Of a stretch of DNA of 64,000 bases, positions 2,289 through 62,535 are shown piece after piece. Below the pieces are notes generated by a model that was not told the origin of the DNA, did not search any database, and worked only from the letters and a program-made list of their open reading frames with translations. Positions within the stretch are counted from its first letter, which is position 1. Each line of letters starts with the position of its first letter. A program made the translations under genes and the position numbers. Source of the stretch: Escherichia coli (GTDB lineage Bacteria; Pseudomonadota; Gammaproteobacteria; Enterobacterales; Enterobacteriaceae); assembly GCF_002854065.1 (NCBI RefSeq), contig NZ_CP024152.1; one strand, 5' to 3'.

Positions 2289-3491
2289 ATGATGAAGAAA
2301 AATCATATTACCCGCACCATCATTGCATCTGCTGTATTATTTTCCTTTAACGCTGCAGCAGCGACGTCATATTTTGAAGCGCGTAACGATGCAATGGGTG
2401 GCACCGGGGTAGCATCTTCCCATTATGGTGTGGCACCTCTGGCAAACCCGGCTTTACTGACAAAGCACAACAGCAATGATGATTTCAGCCTTCTTCTGCC
2501 GTCTGTTGGGGCACAAGTTGCTGATCCTAATGATGTATCAAATAAAGCTGATGATGTTAAAGATGACTGGGATTTGTTTGACAGTGCTGTAGATAACCAG
2601 CATGGCGTACAACAGGCAGCGGCAAATCTTAAACATCGTCTGCAGGAATTCCGCAATATCAATGCAGATGCTCAGGTAGGTGTATCAGCTGTAGCAGCCA
2701 TGGCAAATGACACTCTGCCGTTTGCCCTTATGGTCAAGTCTTACGGAACTGTCAGCGTAAACGGAAAAGTAAACGATGCAGACCTGGATTATCTGGACAA
2801 AGTTGCCAATGGAACAATTACCGACGTCGATAAGAATGCCCTGACCTCACGCGCATTCGGGCGTGCAGCTGTAATTACCGACGTCGGAATTTCATTTGCC
2901 AAAGAACTGGAAACGGCCGGACAAAAATGGTCTCTTGGCGTCACACCAAAATATCAGCGTGTGGACCTGTTTAACTACAACGTAACGGTTCGTGATTACG
3001 ACAAAGACGATTTTGACGGTGACAAGTACCACAACACGAAAAACGGATTCAACGCCGATATTGGTGCTTATACAGACCTGAATGACAACTGGACTGTCGG
3101 TCTTGTTGCCCAGAACATCATTCCACGCAGTATTGATACTAAAGTCGTCAATGGCTTTAAAGAAACCTTCAAAGTTCGTCCACAGGCAACCGCCGGTGTA
3201 TCCTGGCATAATGACCTGTTTACCACTGCTCTTGACGTTGATCTGACTCCTGCCAGTGGCTTCACTTCTGACAGCAAACGTCAGTTTGCAAGTGTTGGTG
3301 CTGAATTTAACGCATGGAAATGGGCGCAATTGCGTGCCGGTTATCGTCAGAACATGGCATCAAACTCCGGAAGCGCCTTCACCGCTGGCGTTGGTATCTC
3401 TCCATTTGACGTCGTACATATCGATGTTTCCGGCCTGGTAGGAACTGACCACGATTACGGTGCAATGGCACAACTTCAGTTCACTTTCTGA
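2289..3491 (+). CDS. traF: TraF-like outer-membrane protein (400 aa)
   Basis: N-terminal signal peptide (AAAATSYF cleavage region) and a C-terminal ...QLQFTF ending in Phe, typical of beta-barrel outer-membrane proteins. Confidence 0.6.
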   Translation: MMKKNHITRTIIASAVLFSFNAAAATSYFEARNDAMGGTGVASSHYGVAPLANPALLTKHNSNDDFSLLLPSVGAQVADPNDVSNKADDVKDDWDLFDSAVDNQHGVQQAAANLKHRLQEFRNINADAQVGVSAVAAMANDTLPFALMVKSYGTVSVNGKVNDADLDYLDKVANGTITDVDKNALTSRAFGRAAVITDVGISFAKELETAGQKWSLGVTPKYQRVDLFNYNVTVRDYDKDDFDGDKYHNTKNGFNADIGAYTDLNDNWTVGLVAQNIIPRSIDTKVVNGFKETFKVRPQATAGVSWHNDLFTTALDVDLTPASGFTSDSKRQFASVGAEFNAWKWAQLRAGYRQNMASNSGSAFTAGVGISPFDVVHIDVSGLVGTDHDYGAMAQLQFTF

Positions 3492-3550
3492 TTACTGTCC
3501 CCGCCCCCGGCACTAAACCCGGGGGTATTTTTATATTCATTTTAAATAAC

Positions 3551-4135
3551 ATGATGAAACCACGTTCTTCTTATTCAAAGACAGCATTCATTCTTTTATT
3601 TTCTGTTTTCCTGGTAGCTGCAGTGACAAAAGCAAAAAGCTCGCTTCCCGATATCACCCTAGAACAGGCAAAAGAAATTAATGCTGATAACACCGTTATT
3701 TTCCTTTTCCGCCATGGAGAACGTTGCGACCGTTCAGATATGCCATGCTATTCGGATAAAAGCGGAATCACTATTACCGGTACAGAGAAAGCACAGCAGG
3801 AAGGTATTAAGTTCGCAACAATCTTCAGTGAATATGATATTTACTCCAGCAATGCGGTAAGAACCATACAAACTGCAAAATTCTTCTCCGGTAAAGACCC
3901 CGTCGTTATGGACAGTTTATCAGACTGCAATAATGATCTTTATAAGACGCTTGAATCAATCGCAAGAGAATCTCATAAAAGGAACATAGTAATAATGACA
4001 CATAATCATTGTTTATCATTTCTGGCCAGAGATAGGCTCGGCAAGAAATTCAAACCGGCGTACCTTGATGCCCTGATCATGCATTACGATGGTACCCGGC
4101 TCATACTTGACGGAAAATACAACAAAGAGGCATAG
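3551..4135 (+). CDS. traG: TraG-like exported protein with histidine-phosphatase-type motifs (194 aa)
   Basis: Signal/TM segment, then FRHGER and later MTHNHC motifs resembling the RHG catalytic core of the histidine phosphatase fold. Confidence 0.55.
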   Translation: MMKPRSSYSKTAFILLFSVFLVAAVTKAKSSLPDITLEQAKEINADNTVIFLFRHGERCDRSDMPCYSDKSGITITGTEKAQQEGIKFATIFSEYDIYSSNAVRTIQTAKFFSGKDPVVMDSLSDCNNDLYKTLESIARESHKRNIVIMTHNHCLSFLARDRLGKKFKPAYLDALIMHYDGTRLILDGKYNKEA

Positions 4136-54365: not shown

Positions 54366-54800
54366 GTACCGTTTATCACCGTCCGGCTGACCCTTCAGGC
54401 GATGACAGTTACGTGCGCCCGTTGTTTGCCGATCGTTGCCAGGCCGGTTTTCCTTTCGCCTGCCACTGATTATGCTGAGCAGGAACTGGATCTGAACAGC
54501 TATTGCATCAGCAGACCTGCAGCCACCTTCTTTCTGCGCGCCAGCGGTGAATCGATGAACCAGGCTGGCGTGCAGAATGGTGATCTGCTGGTAGTGGACA
54601 GGGCCGAAAAACCACAACACGGGGACATCGTTATCGCTGAGATCGACGGTGAGTTCACCGTCAAACGACTGCTGTTGCGCCCACGCCCGGCACTGGAGCC
54701 GGTTTCAGACAGCCCGGAGTTCCGCACACTGTATCCGGAAAACATCTGTATTTTTGGTGTTGTCACTCACGTGATACACAGGACGCGGGAGTTACGCTGA
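54362..54800 (+). pseudogene. impA: impA (UmuD-like) interrupted by a +1 frameshift in a T run near 54454-54456
   Basis: The N-terminal 34 codons (MSTVYHRPADPSGDDSYVRPLFADRCQAGFP) are in one frame from the ATGA-coupled start and hit TGA at 54464; the rest (SPATDYAEQ...SGESM...KRL) is in another frame (ORF 54402-54800). The UmuD-type GFPSPA motif is restored by removing one T. Confidence 0.6.
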
Positions 54801-56073
54801 TGTTTGCACTGGCTGATATCAACAGTTTCTACGCCTCATGTGAAAAAGTTTTCCGCCCGGACCTTCGCAACGAACCGGTCATCGTACTCAGCAATAACGA
54901 TGGCTGTGTGATCGCGCGCAGCCCGGAGGCAAAAGCCCTTGGCATCAGAATGGGGCAGCCCTGGTTTCAGGTGAGACAAATGCGCCTGGAGAAGAAAATA
55001 CATGTATTTTCCAGCAATTATGCGCTGTACCACAGCATGAGCCAACGGGTTATGGCTGTTCTGGAGTCGCTTTCTCCCGCAGTTGAGCCCTACTCAATTG
55101 ATGAAATGTTCATTGATTTGCGGGGGGTGAACCGTTGCATCTCTCCGGAGGTTTTGGTCATCAGCTCAGGGAACAGGTAAAGAGCTGGACAGGACTCACC
55201 ATGGGGGTGGGCATTGCGCCTACAAAAACGCTGGCTAAAAGTGCACAGTGGGCAACAAAGCAATGGCCACAGTTTTCCGGTGTGGTCGCGCTGACGGCAG
55301 AAAACCGTAATCGGATCTTGAAGCTACTGGGGCTGCAGCCAGTTGGTGAGGTCTGGGGAGTAGGACGCAGACTGACGGAAAAGCTGAATGCACTGGGTAT
55401 TAACACAGCACTGCAGCTGGCGCAGGCTAACACGGCATTCATCCGGAAAAACTTCAGCGTCATTCTTGAGCGTACGGTACGCGAACTCAACGGCGAGTCC
55501 TGCATATCCCTGGAAGAAGCACCACCGGCAAAACAGCAGATTGTCTGTAGTCGCAGTTTTGGTGAACGAATCACAGACAAAGATGCCATGCACCAGGCTG
55601 TTGTTCAGTATGCAGAGCGGGCCGCAGAGAAACTACGTGGGGAGCTTCAGTATTGCCGGCAGGTGACGACATTTGTACGGACATCCCCCTTTGCAGTAAA
55701 AGAACCCTGTTACAGCAATGCCGCTGTGGAAAAGCTTCCATTGCCCACACAGGACAGCCGGGACATTATTGCCGCCGCATGCAGAGCCTTAAACCATGTC
55801 TGGCGTGAAGGGTACCGCTATATGAAGGCAGGAGTCATGCTGGCTGATTTCACACCATCGGGTATAGCGCAGCCGGGATTATTTGATGAAATCCAGCCCC
55901 GTAAAAACAGTGAAAAGTTAATGAAAACACTCGATGAACTGAACCAGTCGGGAAAAGGGAAAGTGTGGTTTGCGGGGCGAGGAACCGCCCCTGAATGGCA
56001 AATGAAACGGGAAATGTTGAGTCAGTGTTATACAACTAAATGGCGAGATATTCCCCTGGCCAGGCTGGGTTAG
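54800..56073 (+). pseudogene. impB: impB (UmuC-like Y-family polymerase) interrupted by a -1 frameshift in a T run near 55152-55155
   Basis: ORF 54800-55180 (MFALADINSFYASCEKVFRPD...DEMFIDLRGVNRC) and ORF 55135-56073 (FGHQLREQV...) are consecutive parts of a UmuC-like protein in different frames; adding one T to GTTTTG restores continuity. Confidence 0.6.
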
Positions 56074-56074
56074 T

Positions 56075-56491
56075 TCAGTCATCTCCGAACATATTTTCAG
56101 CGTTTCTTCTGGTCTGGTCTTCACCGTCATTTCTCGACAGACTCTGCTCTGTAAGAGGAGTACTGCAATCCACAGACGTATGGAGACCAGATTGTTTTTC
56201 CAGTAATTCAAGCAATTTCTTTTCAACCGAAAAAGCACCTGGTATCACGCTGGAAATCACCTTATTAATATCATCCAGAGTCGTATTTTCTGTCAGTAAC
56301 TCCGATATCAGCAAAGGAAGACGTTTATCTATAGCTGCAAACGCCGCACCAGTAACTAACATCGCGCGCATGAAACGTCCCCGCTCCTTCAGTTTTTCAT
56401 TTGCAATGAGCTCATCTGCTATCTTATCTCCTGTCCGTTCATCCGGGAAAAGTTCAAATGAGCAGCGTCTGGATTTATTTTCATCACTCAT
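56075..56491 (-). CDS. parR: ParR/StbB-like partition adaptor protein (138 aa)
   Basis: Small gene immediately downstream of, and overlapping, the ParM-like gene. Confidence 0.5.
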   Translation of the reverse strand: MSDENKSRRCSFELFPDERTGDKIADELIANEKLKERGRFMRAMLVTGAAFAAIDKRLPLLISELLTENTTLDDINKVISSVIPGAFSVEKKLLELLEKQSGLHTSVDCSTPLTEQSLSRNDGEDQTRRNAENMFGDD

Positions 56492-57464
56492 TAGTCACAC
56501 CACCTTTCATTTTTATCATTCCCATGACTAAATCAAACTGCGGGGATGAGCTCAGATAAAAGCGCTCATCAGGAACCTTAGTCAGGTTCTTCACAGCCTC
56601 GGCCACAATTTCAGCCCCACCACCAACACACATTACATGTGTATAGTCGGTGAAACGGCTGATGACATCATTAACTCGTTTAATAAGCAACTTCTGCCGT
56701 TCATTGATAACATTAATGATAGACTCACGCTGTTCAGCATTATAAATGCGACGGGAAAGGTAGTCAGGTTCATTACGGTGCACAATGATATTGTCAGCCT
56801 GGAATGAGCTCACTCTTGTATTAGCATGTACAGCCATCTGTTCCTTAACCCCGGATGTAATCAGGGACACGCCGATATTTGGATCACACCAGGTTTTTGT
56901 AATCCCTGTCATTTTGCTACGAACATGCGACACATCAAGAGTTGTACCACCGAGATCTACGATCAAAAGGGATTCATCATCCTCAAGCCCCGCAAGAACA
57001 CTGAAACCAGCGGGAATACTTTCAGGAAGAACGGAAACACTGCGAATAACAAATGCATCACTCCCCTGCACCCGTACTTCACGCATCACATTTTTTTTCT
57101 TTCTTTCAATGTTTTGCTTATTTTTCTGATTGTTGGCGTCAAGGTATTCAGAGATCGGCAATGTGACGATGACATCAACAGGCTGCGCTTTCAGGCCGGT
57201 CTGCTGTAGCGCATGCTGAATGGCCACAACATTCACATCACTGTACTGATAGCGTGTTTCAGTCGTTACGACAGCATCAGCACTTAATGGATCAAATGAA
57301 AACTTCTCGCCGTCGATCTCGTAATTAGCCGGGGCAGCATCATCCAGTAAACTAAAAGACCATTCCGGTTTAAAGCTGTTAGGGCTGATTAACGTTTTCA
57401 CGTCACCATCCTCCAACCAGGCAAGTTTAATGTTGGTAGAACCATCATCAATAAAGATTTTCAT
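56484..57464 (-). CDS. parM: ParM/StbA-like actin-type segregation ATPase (326 aa)
   Basis: Actin-fold phosphate motifs (KIFIDDGSTNIKLAW, VDLGGTTLD, CVGGGA); ATG at 57464. Confidence 0.7.
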   Translation of the reverse strand: MKIFIDDGSTNIKLAWLEDGDVKTLISPNSFKPEWSFSLLDDAAPANYEIDGEKFSFDPLSADAVVTTETRYQYSDVNVVAIQHALQQTGLKAQPVDVIVTLPISEYLDANNQKNKQNIERKKKNVMREVRVQGSDAFVIRSVSVLPESIPAGFSVLAGLEDDESLLIVDLGGTTLDVSHVRSKMTGITKTWCDPNIGVSLITSGVKEQMAVHANTRVSSFQADNIIVHRNEPDYLSRRIYNAEQRESIINVINERQKLLIKRVNDVISRFTDYTHVMCVGGGAEIVAEAVKNLTKVPDERFYLSSSPQFDLVMGMIKMKGGVTNE

Positions 57465-57720
57465 AACCAGTCTCCGTTGCTCATAAACAAATAGAAAAAA
57501 CAAACATGCTTCATACATGCAATGTATATTCAATTATAATGAAAAAACGGTCTTTCTGAAAGGACAAATGCAACATAAAAACACGATAAATTGCATGTAC
57601 ATTGTACACACAACTTTAAGACCAGAGGAAATCATAGATACAAAAACATTATGAAGGTTATATGTGATACATAAATGCAATATAAAAACATCGTGGACAT
57701 CATGGTTCAGGTTAGGGGAA
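57465..57720. promoter_or_regulatory. AT-rich centromere/promoter-like region upstream of parM with repeated TGCA-containing motifs
   Basis: Repeated ACATGCAATGTA / AAATGCAACATA / AATTGCATGTACATTGTACA / AAATGCAATATA elements in an AT-rich leader. Confidence 0.35.
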
Positions 57721-57877
57721 AAGGAATGAAATGGTGAAACTGAGAGGAAAGGAAAGCGGTGACGAATCATGTCACCATAAACAGAAAGATGTCTAATGGG
57801 GACTCTTTAGGTACGTGAAGAATCCCCATAACGCATTTAAAAGACACACATCAGATACCTTTAAGGTATCCGATAGT

Positions 57878-58186
57878 TTATTGACCTATTGCACCATCAC
57901 GTTCAAGCTTCTCTCTTATAGCCTCAATAATATATGAGCTAAAATCCAGAGATGTTTTACTGGTCGCTTTAAGTTCCGCATGAGCTTCAAAATACGACAG
58001 CGGTATGGCCTTAAGATTCTTAGCCTTCGTCCTGGCAGCCACGGGACGACCTGAAACTTCCTCTGCACCTTCATTTGGCTGAGACGGGGCTGTTGCTGTT
58101 ACGGCAGAAGAAGAAGTTTGTAATCTGGCAGAATCCACCAGGTTTTTCAGTTTTTCAGCCTGTGCACTAAATTTCGCTTTGCTCAT
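57878..58186 (-). CDS. ParG-like small centromere-binding protein (102 aa)
   Basis: Small ORF directly downstream of parA; flexible N-terminus and C-terminal helices consistent with ParG/RHH partition proteins. Confidence 0.5.
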   Translation of the reverse strand: MSKAKFSAQAEKLKNLVDSARLQTSSSAVTATAPSQPNEGAEEVSGRPVAARTKAKNLKAIPLSYFEAHAELKATSKTSLDFSSYIIEAIREKLERDGAIGQ

Positions 58187-58272
58187 GAGATAACCCAGGA
58201 TGTTTGTTAGATACTTAAAAGATATCCATTAAAAGCCCAAAGGATACTATATGGATACCCAATAGACACACC
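58187..58272. repeat. GATATCC / GGATAC iteron cluster between parA and parG-like genes
   Basis: GATATCC (58221-58227), GGATACT (58242-58248) and GGATACC (58253-58259); related motifs at 57853-57874 and 58973-59077. Confidence 0.4.
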
Positions 58273-58917
58273 TTACTGTTTGTTATTTTCAATCAGATGA
58301 TTGATTTCTTCGATCAGGGCAATAACTTCCTTACCTCCTGCCGAATAGCGCCCATGAACAGACTCTGTGATTCCCATCCCAGTCTCAATGACATCCTCAA
58401 ATTCTGCACGAGCAGAAATGCGGCTCTTCATCAGCTTCAGATGTTTGAACGATGGCAGGATTGCATCAAGCTTAGGGAATTTCTTCTTGTTAGGATTAAC
58501 TTTACAGAGATACAGGTGAGCAGTTATATCGGTCCCCATGATAGAGCTGATTTCGTCCAGTACTCCATCAAAATGCATCAGACCAATACGTTCAGTCAGG
58601 GAGTCTTTTGAAGGAACAATAACGCAGTCTGCAAAGGCAATCGCAGTACGGGTAAGATCTGAGTCAAATCCCCCACAGTCAATAAGTAACGTCTTATCGC
58701 TGTTCTTGTAGGGAGTCATAATTTCGATTAACTCATCCACTGTTTTGGGTACTTTCACGGAAATTTCTTTTCCTTCAGGTCTCAGCCCCAGAATGATAGA
58801 AAGCCCGGTATGAGTATCCAGATCAACTGTATCAGACTTCATTTCACCAACAATGTTTACGGATGAAGTTGTCTTACCCACACCACCTTTGGGATGCGTA
58901 TTAGCAATAACAGGCAT
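58273..58917 (-). CDS. parA: ParA-family Walker-type partition ATPase (214 aa)
   Basis: Deviant Walker A KGGVGKTT; ATG at 58917 with GGAGA RBS. Confidence 0.75.
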   Translation of the reverse strand: MPVIANTHPKGGVGKTTSSVNIVGEMKSDTVDLDTHTGLSIILGLRPEGKEISVKVPKTVDELIEIMTPYKNSDKTLLIDCGGFDSDLTRTAIAFADCVIVPSKDSLTERIGLMHFDGVLDEISSIMGTDITAHLYLCKVNPNKKKFPKLDAILPSFKHLKLMKSRISARAEFEDVIETGMGITESVHGRYSAGGKEVIALIEEINHLIENNKQ

Positions 58918-58959
58918 AGTGTATCTCCAGAATCCACATGTAATACCCATAAAGACCCC

Positions 58960-59096
58960 ATAAGACACCTTTCGGATATCCAAGAGGTACTCAATAGATG
59001 TTTTTTTACTCTATACCGGTCCTGCATGTCAACAGAATATGAAATACCGATAATATATCCATGAGATATCCGAAAGGGATTTAAAAAAGTCAGAGC
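58960..59096. repeat. Iteron cluster upstream of parA (putative centromere/operator)
   Basis: CGGATATCC (58973-58981), ATATATCC (59053-59060) and GAGATATCCGAAAGG (59063-59077). Confidence 0.4.
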
Positions 59097-59876
59097 TTAT
59101 GGAATTCTTTTGAGCATAGACACCGCATCGGACTCAGGCATCGAAAACTGCACCCGGTGCCGTGCAGCCACATCCAGTGCAAACACCTTCGTGTAGACCT
59201 CCGTTGAGCTGATGGACTTATGCCCCATCAGACTCTGCAGGACCTTCAGCGGTATACCGGCATACAGCATATGCATCGCATAGGAATGGCGGAACGTATG
59301 TGGCGTGACCGGGACAGAGAACGTCACACCATCAGCGGCAGCGGCGGCAACCGCCTCCCCAATCCAGGTCCTGACCGTTCTGTCCGTCACTTCCCAGATC
59401 CGCGCTTTCTCTGTCCTGCCTGTTCGTTTATTACGCCGTTCCATGGGGATTTTCAGTGTGGCCACCATCGTCTGCAGCTGGCTGACGTACCAGGCGTCGG
59501 AGAGCGGAACCAGACGGTGAGTCTGCTGACCGGCGGGCATCCTTCCTGCCGTCCTGGCGGCTTTTTCTGTCCGCTGCTTCAGAGTGGCCAGTTGCACAAA
59601 CGGATACGGAGACGTGAGCGAAAAATCCCCCCGCGTCAGCGCCAGTGCTTCATTAATGCGCGCACCGGTGTTCCACAGTGTGGCCAGCAGCATTTTGCGG
59701 CGCAGATCCGGCACGTAATGGAGCAGGGCGCTCACTTCAGGGGCCAGCAGGTATTTTGGCAGTTCATCATGAACCATCGACATCTGGCGGAGTGCCAGCG
59801 CTGCCGGATAATCGATGGCAACAGGAAGCTGAGCGGCATCCCGGGCATGGTGGATCGGTGACGGCAGGTGCTGCAT
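59097..59876 (-). CDS. Tyrosine site-specific recombinase, probable multimer resolvase (259 aa)
   Basis: Catalytic motifs HTFRHSYA and LGHKSISSTEVYT (R...H-x-x-R...Y); ATG at 59876. Confidence 0.75.
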   Translation of the reverse strand: MQHLPSPIHHARDAAQLPVAIDYPAALALRQMSMVHDELPKYLLAPEVSALLHYVPDLRRKMLLATLWNTGARINEALALTRGDFSLTSPYPFVQLATLKQRTEKAARTAGRMPAGQQTHRLVPLSDAWYVSQLQTMVATLKIPMERRNKRTGRTEKARIWEVTDRTVRTWIGEAVAAAAADGVTFSVPVTPHTFRHSYAMHMLYAGIPLKVLQSLMGHKSISSTEVYTKVFALDVAARHRVQFSMPESDAVSMLKRIP

Positions 59877-59877
59877 A

Positions 59878-60291
59878 TCAGTGTTCACTCCACGGGGAAA
59901 CGTCGGGCAGTTTTTCCACAACACGGTACTTTCCCGGATAACGGAGCTGGTTACCGCCACGCGTCCAGACGGTGACAACAAAACCCCCTCCCTGGTTGTT
60001 TTCGGGGAGCAGGCGATCGCACTGCTCACTCAGCATGTGGATCACAAACGGCGCATCGCTGCCGTCTTCAAATACCAGTTCCAGCGCATCGCGGCCATTC
60101 AGCGTTCCCTTACTGATGATGACGTACTCAGCCCCCCGCATCTCCCTGAGTAAATGTTTTGCCGCATCCGGGACAAGCAGCCTGGCTGCGCCGGCATTCC
60201 AGCTGAGGTAGACATATCCGGCCTGCGCCTGTACAGACTGCCAGTAATCCGTTCTGGCGACAGCCTGACCTTCATTCTCAATAAAAAACAT
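59878..60291 (-). CDS. Hypothetical protein coupled to the resolvase gene (137 aa)
   Basis: AAGGAG RBS before the ATG at 60291; its stop overlaps the resolvase start (TGATATG). Confidence 0.45.
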   Translation of the reverse strand: MFFIENEGQAVARTDYWQSVQAQAGYVYLSWNAGAARLLVPDAAKHLLREMRGAEYVIISKGTLNGRDALELVFEDGSDAPFVIHMLSEQCDRLLPENNQGGGFVVTVWTRGGNQLRYPGKYRVVEKLPDVSPWSEH

Positions 60292-60859
60292 GGGTGACTC
60301 CTTTTTTCTTTTCCGGGCAGGGACGGTCATGCGATAACGTCATCCATCATCACTGCCCTTACCGTCACGCCGTCAGATAACATCATGCCGTTATCATCAT
60401 CACCATGATAACAAGCATCCATATAACCACGCCGTTAAATTACCGGAGAGCCGTTTCCGTCAGATCCGACTTTCCGAAATATCACAACTTTCCGGAAGTG
60501 TACCACGCTGAGAAAATCATCATATCGCTGTTTTCCGCCCCTGCGCGGCGCATCACAGGTCAGGGAGATGACACAACATATAGTGTCATCAGCAGCTGAA
60601 TTCAGCACTACATGTTGTGCTGACAGGAGGTGGCGTTATGTGGGGGAAGAGGAAGATCCGTCTCCGCCGGAAACCGGATCTGCGCGACGGGAAACGGGCA
60701 AGTGATATGATAATTGAGCAATACACACAAAATCATATCAGATATGATTTTCATCATTGATGATAAAACCATATATGATATTATCAGAAATCAGGAGCAC
60801 ACAAATCATGCGGGATATTATTTTTACCTGTCAGAACATTATCAGATGGAGCGTGCAGG

Positions 60860-61114
60860 ATGGATGAAGAAAGGGTGTTTTCACTCAGCTATGAGCAACT
60901 AACCCGAATAGCGGAAAAAAATATCCGTGAATGTGGGCTGGACAACCAGAGCGCCAGGTGTATCAGTGAACTGAAGGCCTCAGCTCTGCTGTGGTTGTGG
61001 TATGAACTGGCCATTCATGGTGCGCCACAGAACAATCACGCACAGGCCCGGGAACGCATCGATACCGATTATCAGCGCCTCAAAAAACTCATCTGGTCGG
61101 AGGGTGACAGTTAA
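60860..61114 (+). CDS. Hypothetical protein (84 aa)
   Basis: ORF translationally coupled (TAATG) to the downstream 196-aa gene. Confidence 0.35.
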   Translation: MDEERVFSLSYEQLTRIAEKNIRECGLDNQSARCISELKASALLWLWYELAIHGAPQNNHAQARERIDTDYQRLKKLIWSEGDS

Positions 61115-62199: not shown

Positions 62200-62535
62200 A
62201 TGAACAGAAAATATTATTTTAATAATATGTGGTGGGGATGGGTGACGGGGGGATATATGCTGTATATGTCATGGGATTATGAGTTTAAATACAGATTACT
62301 GTTCTGGTGTATTTCTCTCTGCGGAATGGTTTTGTATCCGGTTGCAAAATGGTATATTGAAGATACAGCTCTGAAATTTACCCGGCCTGATTTCTGGAAC
62401 AGCGGTTTTTTTGCTGATACACCTGGAAAAATGGGGTTGCTTGCGGTTTATACGGGTACTGTTTTCATATTATCTCTTCCGTTAAGTATGATATATATTC
62501 TTTCTGTTATTATAAAAAGGCTGTCTGTAAGATAG
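62200..62535 (+). CDS. Colicin Ia/Ib-type immunity protein (111 aa)
   Basis: Starts MNRKYYFNNMWWGW; polytopic membrane protein convergent with the colicin gene; 111 aa fits colicin Ia immunity better than Ib. Confidence 0.7.
   Translation: MNRKYYFNNMWWGWVTGGYMLYMSWDYEFKYRLLFWCISLCGMVLYPVAKWYIEDTALKFTRPDFWNSGFFADTPGKMGLLAVYTGTVFILSLPLSMIYILSVIIKRLSVR

Follow-up and report, generated by a model that had tools for sequence, protein, structure and literature searches.

Gene content and organization of the region

The window analysed was a stretch of 64,000 nt of Escherichia coli DNA (contig NZ_CP024152.1), and the part considered here, nt 55800-60400, carried two plasmid partition systems, a small Walker-type ParA ATPase (YefA) followed by a small protein (YegA) and an actin-type ParM/ParR pair, together with a tyrosine recombinase, ResD (Table 1). 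The genes were all on the minus strand, with a transcription order of yedA-resD-yefA-yegA-parM-parR, and umuC was convergent with the end of parR. An identical order, yedA-resD-yefA-yegA-parA(M)-parB(R), is found in pCH365 (LC567098), from whose annotation the R64-style names used here were taken; below, parA denotes yefA and not the R64-style name of parM.

Nt 55800-60400 shared 100% identity with E. coli plasmid NZ_AP021916 (typed IncI-gamma/K1, MOBP, MPF_I), and at least 1039 plasmids in PLSDB, with hosts mainly in Escherichia, Salmonella and Klebsiella, held at least 80% of this segment. The tandem junction of the two par operons was kept in about 1081 PLSDB plasmids, and the IncF plasmid pAA-EA11 of E. 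coli O104:H4 possessed the same block with yedA replaced by ccdAB. We consider the region likely to be a plasmid stability block of IncI1 type, also borne by IncF plasmids, that comprises two unrelated segregation systems and a recombinase. The original prediction, made from the nucleotide sequence, had proposed two partition systems with distinct repeat sets, a proposal upheld by homology, by the anatomy of the locus and by its relatives. No Rfam family was matched across nt 55500-61000.

Table 1 Features of the partition region, with nt positions in the window
Feature	Position (nt)	Strand	Basis or remarks
parR (R64-style parB), 138 aa, type II centromere-binding adaptor	56075-56491	-	Pfam Plasmid_stab_B, E 7.6e-28
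parM (R64-style parA), 326 aa	56484-57464	-	Pfam StbA_N, E 5e-82, and ParM C-terminal domain, E 2.5e-72
Candidate parC, TATATTGCATT-type and GTTTTTATATT-type repeats around the parM promoter	57513-57693	-	Repeat clustering
TATATTGCATT direct copies	57674-57684, 57567-57577, 57516-57526		Matches with up to 2 mismatches
TATATTGCATT inverted copies	57587-57597, 57525-57535		Matches with up to 2 mismatches
Predicted parM promoter, TTCAGA-16-TATAAT	57533-57560	-	Best consensus match in the region, 10/12 positions
Hairpin GGTGAC-N7-GTCACC, possible terminator at the 3′ end of the parA-yegA cassette	57757-57777	-	Conserved in relative L013
Downstream array, about 8 units in both orientations	57785-57877	.	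Cores GGTATC 57865, GATACC 57854, GGTACG 57810, GATGTC 57788
yegA, 102 aa, putative centromere-binding partner of YefA	57878-58186	-	Position directly downstream of parA
Intergenic array, eight contiguous 11-bp units TnnTGGRTATC (coding orientation)	58187-58275	-	Perfect register
yefA, 214 aa, small Walker-type ParA ATPase, type Ib	58273-58917	-	Motif and family matches
Promoter-proximal sub-array, about 7 units	58920-58995	-	Cores 58920, 58942, 58964, 58975, 58986, in one 11-bp phase
parA Shine-Dalgarno sequence GGAG	58925-58928	-	Overlapped by the promoter-proximal sub-array
Predicted parA promoter	TTGACA 59027-59032; TAAAAA 59003-59008	-	18-nt spacer with GGTATA core; read from sequence
Promoter-distal sub-array, 3 clear units and 1 weak unit	59040-59078	-	Cores 59065, 59054, 59043
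resD, tyrosine recombinase, presumed multimer resolvase	59097-59876	-	Pfam Phage_integrase, E 8e-19
yedA, 137 aa	59878-60291	-	Stop codon 1 nt before the resD start

The Walker-type ATPase and its partner

YefA possessed a deviant Walker A motif, KGGVGKT, at residues 10-16 and was matched by the Pfam families AAA_31, MipZ and CbiA, by the NCBIfam model ParA_partition from end to end (positions 3-203 of 203, E 1.6e-14) and by the PHROG ParA-like partition protein (E 9e-23). The gene calls, the motif and the ParA_partition match bore out the Walker-type ParA with a small partner that had been predicted at nt 57878-58917. A small ParA, a small partner encoded downstream and adjacent repeat arrays, the last judged by the presence of repeats only, place the pair in type Ib. 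At 214 aa, YefA falls within the size range of type Ib ATPases (about 200-230 aa), which have no N-terminal DNA-binding extension. The labels in the pCH365 annotation are inverted, ParM/ParR being called type I and the Walker ATPase type II, and one paper, citing the R64 sequence report, files yefA under site-specific recombination.

As indicated by alignments and an AlphaFold2 (AF2) model, YegA was made up of an N-terminal helix (residues 6-20) that is conserved and leads into SARLQTS, a variable, disordered linker modelled with low confidence, and a conserved C-terminal part of 50 residues, for which an extended segment (residues 56-62) and two helices (63-75 and 82-96) were predicted; the consensus of the wider family has G-K-T-S between the two helices. 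In the model, this layout would look like that of a ribbon-helix-helix (RHH) partner with a flexible ParA-stimulating tail. YegA matched phrog_19714, a family of unknown function, and its matches to DUF3950 were all below threshold. The partner had been called ParG-like, for which neither sequence nor fold gave a match: hits to Pfam ParG (PF09274) and RHH_1 (PF01402) were absent up to E 10, whereas pB171 ParB does match RHH_1, and hhalign returned probabilities of 0.3% against the ParG alignment and 0.9% against pB171 ParB. What agrees with that description is limited to the size, the position and the C-terminus, predicted as helix-helix.

In RefSeq and GenBank, members of the YegA family are often named "hypothetical" or "molecular chaperone GroEL", the latter being a misannotation. 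About 200 matches to yegA on E. coli chromosomes were rejected as genes, since they represent a 3′ remnant flanked by insertion sequence (IS) elements; in the chromosome NZ_CP023364 (L014, nt 3992-4081), an 81-nt fragment with 90% identity to the 3′ end of yegA lay between IS elements.

Iteron arrays of the Walker-type system

The GATATCC and GGATAC motifs predicted to flank the Walker-type pair were the best-conserved copies of a larger set of iterons with a GRTAYC core, arranged in an 11-bp phase. The arrays are thus real, but the segments originally assigned to them (nt 58973-59077, 58221-58259 and 57853-57874) were too short, the three arrays spanning about nt 58920-59078 (upstream), 58187-58275 (intergenic) and 57785-57877 (downstream). 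Exact GRTAYC occurred 6 times in the 363 non-coding bp around parA and yegA, whereas the rate over the whole window predicts 0.40 (Poisson p ~4e-6), and it was absent from the 954 coding bp of the cassette; with one mismatch allowed, 18 cores were counted versus 5.6 expected. These core counts, together with phase analysis, were used instead of a position weight matrix, as the matrix built from the eight intergenic units was too weak alone. GRTAYC is its own reverse complement and therefore suits a dimeric binder.

The cores of each array fell into one modulo-11 phase, including all four downstream cores, with the exception of a single intergenic core, the one nearest the promoter, which was 1 bp off; the distal upstream sub-array and the core in the promoter spacer had separate modulo-11 phases. 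Lag 11 was the top autocorrelation lag in the upstream (z score 5.1) and intergenic (z 3.3) segments, while in the downstream segment lag 11 (z 1.9) came second to lag 22. Across the whole 64 kb, the ten 90-bp windows ranking highest for lag 11 were all located within nt 58911-59041. One 90-bp window at about nt 62211-62300, where by position the colicin Ia immunity gene begins, was also within the top fifteen, and its periodicity is probably due to chance or to codon periodicity.

The two upstream sub-arrays flanked the predicted parA promoter, one further core lying inside the promoter spacer, and the promoter-proximal sub-array overlapped the 5′ untranslated region of parA as well as its Shine-Dalgarno sequence. 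A consensus promoter scanner made no call at the predicted parA promoter; TTGAC, the first five bases of its -35 element, was invariant in all relatives examined including that on a Klebsiella plasmid (L007, see below), which also retained an A-rich -10 element. The intergenic iterons filled the entire 86-bp gap between parA and yegA, and no convincing promoter was seen by eye in this array. Downstream of yegA, the 30 nt at 57784-57813 formed an 80% inverted copy of three upstream iterons at nt 58944-58973. Three hairpins were predicted in the transcript downstream of yegA (RNA fold z -5.25 versus shuffles), one with a T-rich tail and the last being the possible terminator listed in Table 1, and the downstream iteron units allow two 12-bp hairpins. 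In L013, the cassette stops just past this possible terminator hairpin, near nt 57736, and is followed by an IS66 element, an arrangement that indicates the boundary of the parA-yegA module. Neither regulatory region contained iterons of the other system.

The placement of iterons to either side of the Walker-type pair had been regarded as unusual, which is not the case: dual arrays were shown in pESBL (IncI1) and stated for pB171 (par2) and pSM19035 (PMC7602700). The more distinctive features are the third array, located between parA and the partner gene, and the 11-bp phasing.

Related cassettes on other replicons

The yefA-yegA cassette also stands alone, without ParMR, on plasmids of unrelated replicon types, and in seven cassettes, including that of the window, the YegA homologue was always encoded directly after a ParA of about 210 aa. 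Identities of ParA and YegA, respectively, were 85% and 69% for the Klebsiella IncFII plasmid pKPN-0d7f (L007), 63% and 49% for a Yersinia plasmid (L008), and 45% and 52%, the latter over the C-terminal two thirds, for a Klebsiella MOBC plasmid (L009). In all three, arrays were retained in each of the three places, before, between and after the two genes, and the strongest lag was 11 or 22 throughout, save for the upstream segment of L007 (lag 18). The iteron core shifted from GGRTATC or GGTGTC to ATGTATnT in the Yersinia plasmid and AGGAWWTCC in L009 and, in parallel with this shift, the extended segment preceding the first C-terminal helix of YegA changed from KAIPLSY to RAIPETY and KAIPTTY.

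A profile search of 1.8 billion representatives yielded about 55 clusters of 70-118-aa proteins sharing the C-terminal domain of YegA. Three of these distant members (L015, L016 and L018) were examined at the locus level; each was encoded directly after a ParA of about 210 aa, and the gaps of 61-110 bp between the genes held GATATC/GATATA-type units spaced by 11 bp. The lag-11 signal in the gap was z 5.5 in L016, z 2.9 in L018 and weak in L015 (z 1.1), in which the units were read by eye. An intergenic array was therefore present in six of six diverged cassettes, with lag 11 clear in all but L015 (z 2.9 to 5.9 in the five). Similar units were observed in L016 and L018 in a short stretch beside the parA promoter; the 240-bp upstream segments of the distant members gave no lag-11 signal overall, and the downstream array was absent in L016 and L018. 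Judged by presence and absence across the cassettes, the upstream and intergenic arrays look like family features and the downstream array looks lineage-specific.

These arrays could be read differently, with YegA acting mainly as a transcriptional autoregulator, the repeats as operators and terminator hairpins, and ParA serving not plasmid partition but some other positioning, or none. The sub-arrays that flank and enter the predicted parA promoter, the 12-bp hairpins and T-rich tail downstream of yegA, and the two distant cassettes devoid of a downstream array would all be in keeping with this. We nevertheless regard it as unlikely, because in characterized type Ib systems, such as that of pB171, the sites serve as operator and centromere alike (PMC7602700), so that the two roles are not exclusive; moreover, the array between parA and yegA was present in every cassette examined, with no recognizable promoter inside, type Ib systems are defined anatomically by just such a small ParA, small partner and flanking arrays, and the cassette moves as a unit among unrelated replicon types. 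A role of the arrays in partition thus remains the preferred interpretation.

The ParM/ParR system and the parM leader

The ParM protein matched the structures of R1 ParM (E 1e-103 to 6e-104), and residues 1-83 of ParR matched the structure of pB171 ParR (2JD3, E 2e-6); with the Pfam domains listed in Table 1, these matches confirmed the ParM/ParR pair predicted at nt 56075-57464. The two genes overlapped by 8 nt with parR downstream, and an actin-fold ParM ATPase followed by ParR assigns the pair to type II.

The description of the parM leader as AT-rich with TGCA-containing repeats was correct. When up to 2 mismatches were allowed, TATATTGCATT had 21 matches in the 64 kb, five of which clustered inside nt 57516-57684 (~170 bp), and the count of this 11-mer in the leader was above those of all 100 shuffles. 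The leader also contained five GTTTTTATATT-like copies and an 18-nt direct repeat at nt 57566 and 57673 (94% identical), and two leader windows were within the top fifteen of the 64 kb for 11-bp periodicity. Among relatives, the distal and proximal TATATTGCATT copies were conserved, and the copies beside the -35 box varied. By analogy with R1 and pB171, it is reasonable to name the leader parC, and by the same analogy ParR may bind the repeats at nt 57513-57693.

Relative to L011, L012 and L003, the leader (nt 57465-57700) had diverged by ~8%, as against 2-4% at synonymous sites of the flanking genes, and the changes were concentrated in the repeat copies beside the -35 box. Recombination, relaxed constraint or selection on centromere specificity are possible causes of this divergence.

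The recombinase and yedA

A resolvase module had been predicted at nt 59097-60291. A recombinase is encoded there, but ResD is a tyrosine recombinase of the phage-integrase family and not a serine resolvase: besides the Pfam match, it showed weak matches to Xer-family models of NCBIfam, and the catalytic R, H-x-x-R and Y were visible in the translation within GARINE, HTFRH and EVY, respectively. ResD shared 94% identity with the integrase encoded after ccdAB in a pB171-type IncF plasmid. The other member of the proposed module, yedA, had no recognizable function, no match being obtained in Pfam, NCBIfam or PHROG, and sits where the IncF versions of the block carry the toxin-antitoxin pair ccdAB.

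The location of the upstream repeats directly downstream of resD, and a perfect 13-bp inverted repeat that they contain (nt 58968-58980 with 59065-59077), raise the question whether the repeats between resD and parA are a recombination site of ResD rather than partition sites. Core sites of tyrosine recombinases usually have a spacer of 6-8 bp, whereas the arms of this inverted repeat are 84 bp apart. In addition, the arms are phased iterons of the same family as those in the arrays away from resD, each arm has changed independently in relatives without compensation, and the 94%-identical ResD of the pB171-type locus lies beside wholly different repeats with a 7-bp period. In L007, a decayed resD-like gene with stops and frameshifts (nt 2300-2560) was located directly upstream of the intact parA iteron array, and the arrays persist also in L008 and L009, both of which are without resD. 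On these grounds, a ResD site is very improbable, and the repeats are better taken as belonging to the partition cassette; the L007 pseudogene beside intact arrays also suggests that the association of resD with the par cassette is old, yet not needed for retention of the repeats.

Integrity of the two systems

The open reading frames (ORFs) of parM, parR, yefA and yegA were all intact in the window and, among close relatives, synonymous changes exceeded non-synonymous ones in both operons (about 21 versus 3 in parA and about 8.5 versus 5.5 in parM, as sums over non-independent comparisons). On these grounds, both partition systems look functional. One of them might still be vestigial or redundant, leaving the plasmid to rely effectively on a single machine, as deletion of the sole par locus of pESBL hardly reduced stability, with conjugation and toxin-antitoxin systems compensating (PMC7602700), the parAB cassette stands alone on several plasmids, and ParM is frameshifted in L011. 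We think this improbable given the four intact ORFs, the retention of the tandem junction in so many PLSDB plasmids and the substitution patterns, which indicate purifying selection on both pairs; two working systems remain the favoured interpretation. The frameshift in L011 (the ATCC 43886 plasmid NZ_CP024255, ~nt 1947-2930) lies near the C-terminus of ParM, and ParR, ParA and YegA of that plasmid are intact.

Next to the block, umuC (an impB homologue, nt 54800-56073) was divided into two ORFs by a single-base deletion near nt 55152 relative to NZ_AP021916, with 0 mismatches over 1275 bases apart from that deletion; the split represents either a pseudogene or a sequencing error.

Comparison with known partition systems

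Plasmid pB171 likewise pairs a type Ib system (par2, parAB) with an adjacent type II system (par1, parMR), with the cis-acting sites parC1 and parC2 and with arrays on both sides of the type Ib operon. A pB171-type locus (L006, CP091396), retrieved with the sequence belonging to the ParR structure, shares ccdAB and the closely similar ResD as neighbours, and the ParR described here belongs to the same Pfam family as pB171 ParR, in agreement with the structural match above. However, the pB171-type operons, par1 and par2, diverge from a shared central region, parC1, whereas the two operons in the window are in tandem on the minus strand, each with its own upstream region. Protein identities between the two loci were 19% for ParA and 37% for ParM, YegA could not be aligned with ParB, and the arrays of the pB171-type locus have a period of 7 bp instead of 11 bp. 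The possibility that the present locus is the pB171 locus itself was thus rejected on the basis of protein identities and layout. No array separates parA from parB in pB171, since these genes overlap. In L006, the arrays flanking parAB (nt 2246-2382 and 3297-3524) showed a clear 7-bp period with TATGAA-type units, and two AnATTGAGTATT repeats were located just upstream of parM.

A double locus of types Ib and II has accordingly been known since pB171; the present one differs in being in tandem and in having a Walker-type protein pair that is unrelated or distantly related. Ebersbach and Gerdes are said to have found in 2001 that each pB171 locus alone stabilized a test plasmid and that both together did so better. 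In a 2026 survey, the combination of a type I RHH system with a type II system was recorded in 971 PLSDB plasmids and treated as previously reported. The block described here is also widespread and already annotated, and the YegA family is without a detectable relative.

The type Ib ParF/ParG/parH system of TP228 also consists of a small Walker ATPase and a small partner, the latter with a flexible N-terminus and a C-terminal strand-helix-helix such as is predicted in YegA, and K-G-T-S of ParG is placed as G-K-T-S of the YegA family; the two partners nevertheless showed no detectable homology in the profile comparisons given above. ParG sites are short tetramer boxes with 8-bp spacing and are known only from upstream of parF. 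Compared with parMRC of R1/NR1, ParM was clearly homologous, and ParR fell into the StbB-type plasmid stability family of Pfam. The parC of R1 contains ten 11-bp iterons flanking the promoter. As in R1, the promoter of parM is surrounded by the repeats described here, upstream of the gene, in a leader with 11-bp periodicity, but only about five degenerate copies were recognizable, some of them inverted.

In pSM19035, omega-binding arrays are located upstream of both delta, the ParA gene, and omega, the partner gene. This type Ib delta/omega system is the closest analogue of an array lying between the two genes, although pSM19035 is a Gram-positive plasmid, its repeats are heptads with a 7-bp period, and the two genes are separately transcribed. 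The par locus of pESBL also resides on an IncI1 backbone, at an equivalent position beside umuDC-like (imp) genes, and likewise encodes a small Walker ParA and a partner of about 100 aa without a recognizable motif, with upstream and downstream arrays of units in both orientations. Binding of ParB to these arrays and stabilization of the plasmid by the par locus were demonstrated experimentally (PMC7602700). The pESBL ParA, however, shared only 24% identity with YefA, and pESBL carries another allele of the module; the GATAACAA octamers that make up its repeats on both sides were absent from the present locus; no ParMR accompanies it; and, as its parA and parB overlap, it has no intergenic array. 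Identity with the characterized pESBL par was therefore rejected, given the absence of GATAACAA here and the different ParA/ParB beside umuC in pESBL.

Proposed mode of action

The families of ParM, ParR, ParA and ResD are established, as are the existence, phasing and excess of the repeats and their conservation with lineage-specific cores in diverged cassettes; from these, we infer which protein binds which repeat set, the fold of YegA, the centromere or operator roles of the repeats, the promoter positions and any interplay of the two systems. YefA would work with YegA as a type Ib machine, in which YegA dimers would bind the near-palindromic GRTAYC cores of the three arrays, once per helical turn of 11 bp. 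Occupancy of the upstream sub-arrays should repress the operon and at the same time build the partition complex, and the conserved basic N-terminal helix of YegA would contact and stimulate ParA-ATP on the nucleoid, an interaction that would space the plasmid copies as in other ParA systems. In the second system, the TATATTGCATT-type repeats surrounding the parM promoter would be the binding sites of ParR, which would then cap the ParM filaments that push sister plasmids apart and also autoregulate the operon, while ResD would resolve multimers, giving both machines monomers to segregate.

Several observations weigh against this interpretation. For YegA, no match was obtained in Pfam, NCBIfam or the sequences of the PDB, whether with the single sequence or with profiles of 21 and 54 sequences; its AF2 monomer (predicted local distance difference test score, pLDDT, 64) had no Foldseek match, nor had a fused two-copy model meant to let the ribbon form (pLDDT 52). 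The stable hairpins of the downstream array could simply terminate transcription. The repeats in the parM leader are few and degenerate, and the copies beside the -35 box vary among relatives with nearly identical ParR, so that they are no more than candidate ParR sites. The divergence behind the test for purifying selection is small (synonymous substitutions per site, dS, 0.01-0.06), and no functional work on yefA or yegA came up when the literature was searched by gene name and protein accession.

Significance

Among the major vehicles of extended-spectrum β-lactamase (ESBL) and AmpC resistance genes in E. coli and Salmonella are IncI1 and related IncF plasmids. Once the cis sites are known, it can be predicted which fragments, when cloned, should give rise to partition incompatibility, deletions for stability studies can be designed more cleanly, and the annotation can be corrected, namely the naming of YegA and the exchanged type I and type II labels in pCH365. 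The 11-bp phasing and the intergenic array also set the system apart, in ways open to experiment, from the type Ib systems studied so far, with their 7-8 bp arrays.

It is conceivable, although we put this forward tentatively and with more doubt than confidence, that YefA and YegA represent an uncharacterized type Ib subfamily of enterobacterial plasmids and phage-like elements, distinguished by a partner that cannot be related to RHH proteins, by reading of one face of the DNA and by a constant intergenic array. If so, YegA would read GATATC-type hexamers one helical turn apart, which would place all dimers on one face of the DNA, in contrast to the helical wrapping at 7-8 bp of the pB171, omega and ParG types, and the array between parA and the partner gene may set the ratio of ParA to partner or serve as the main centromere.

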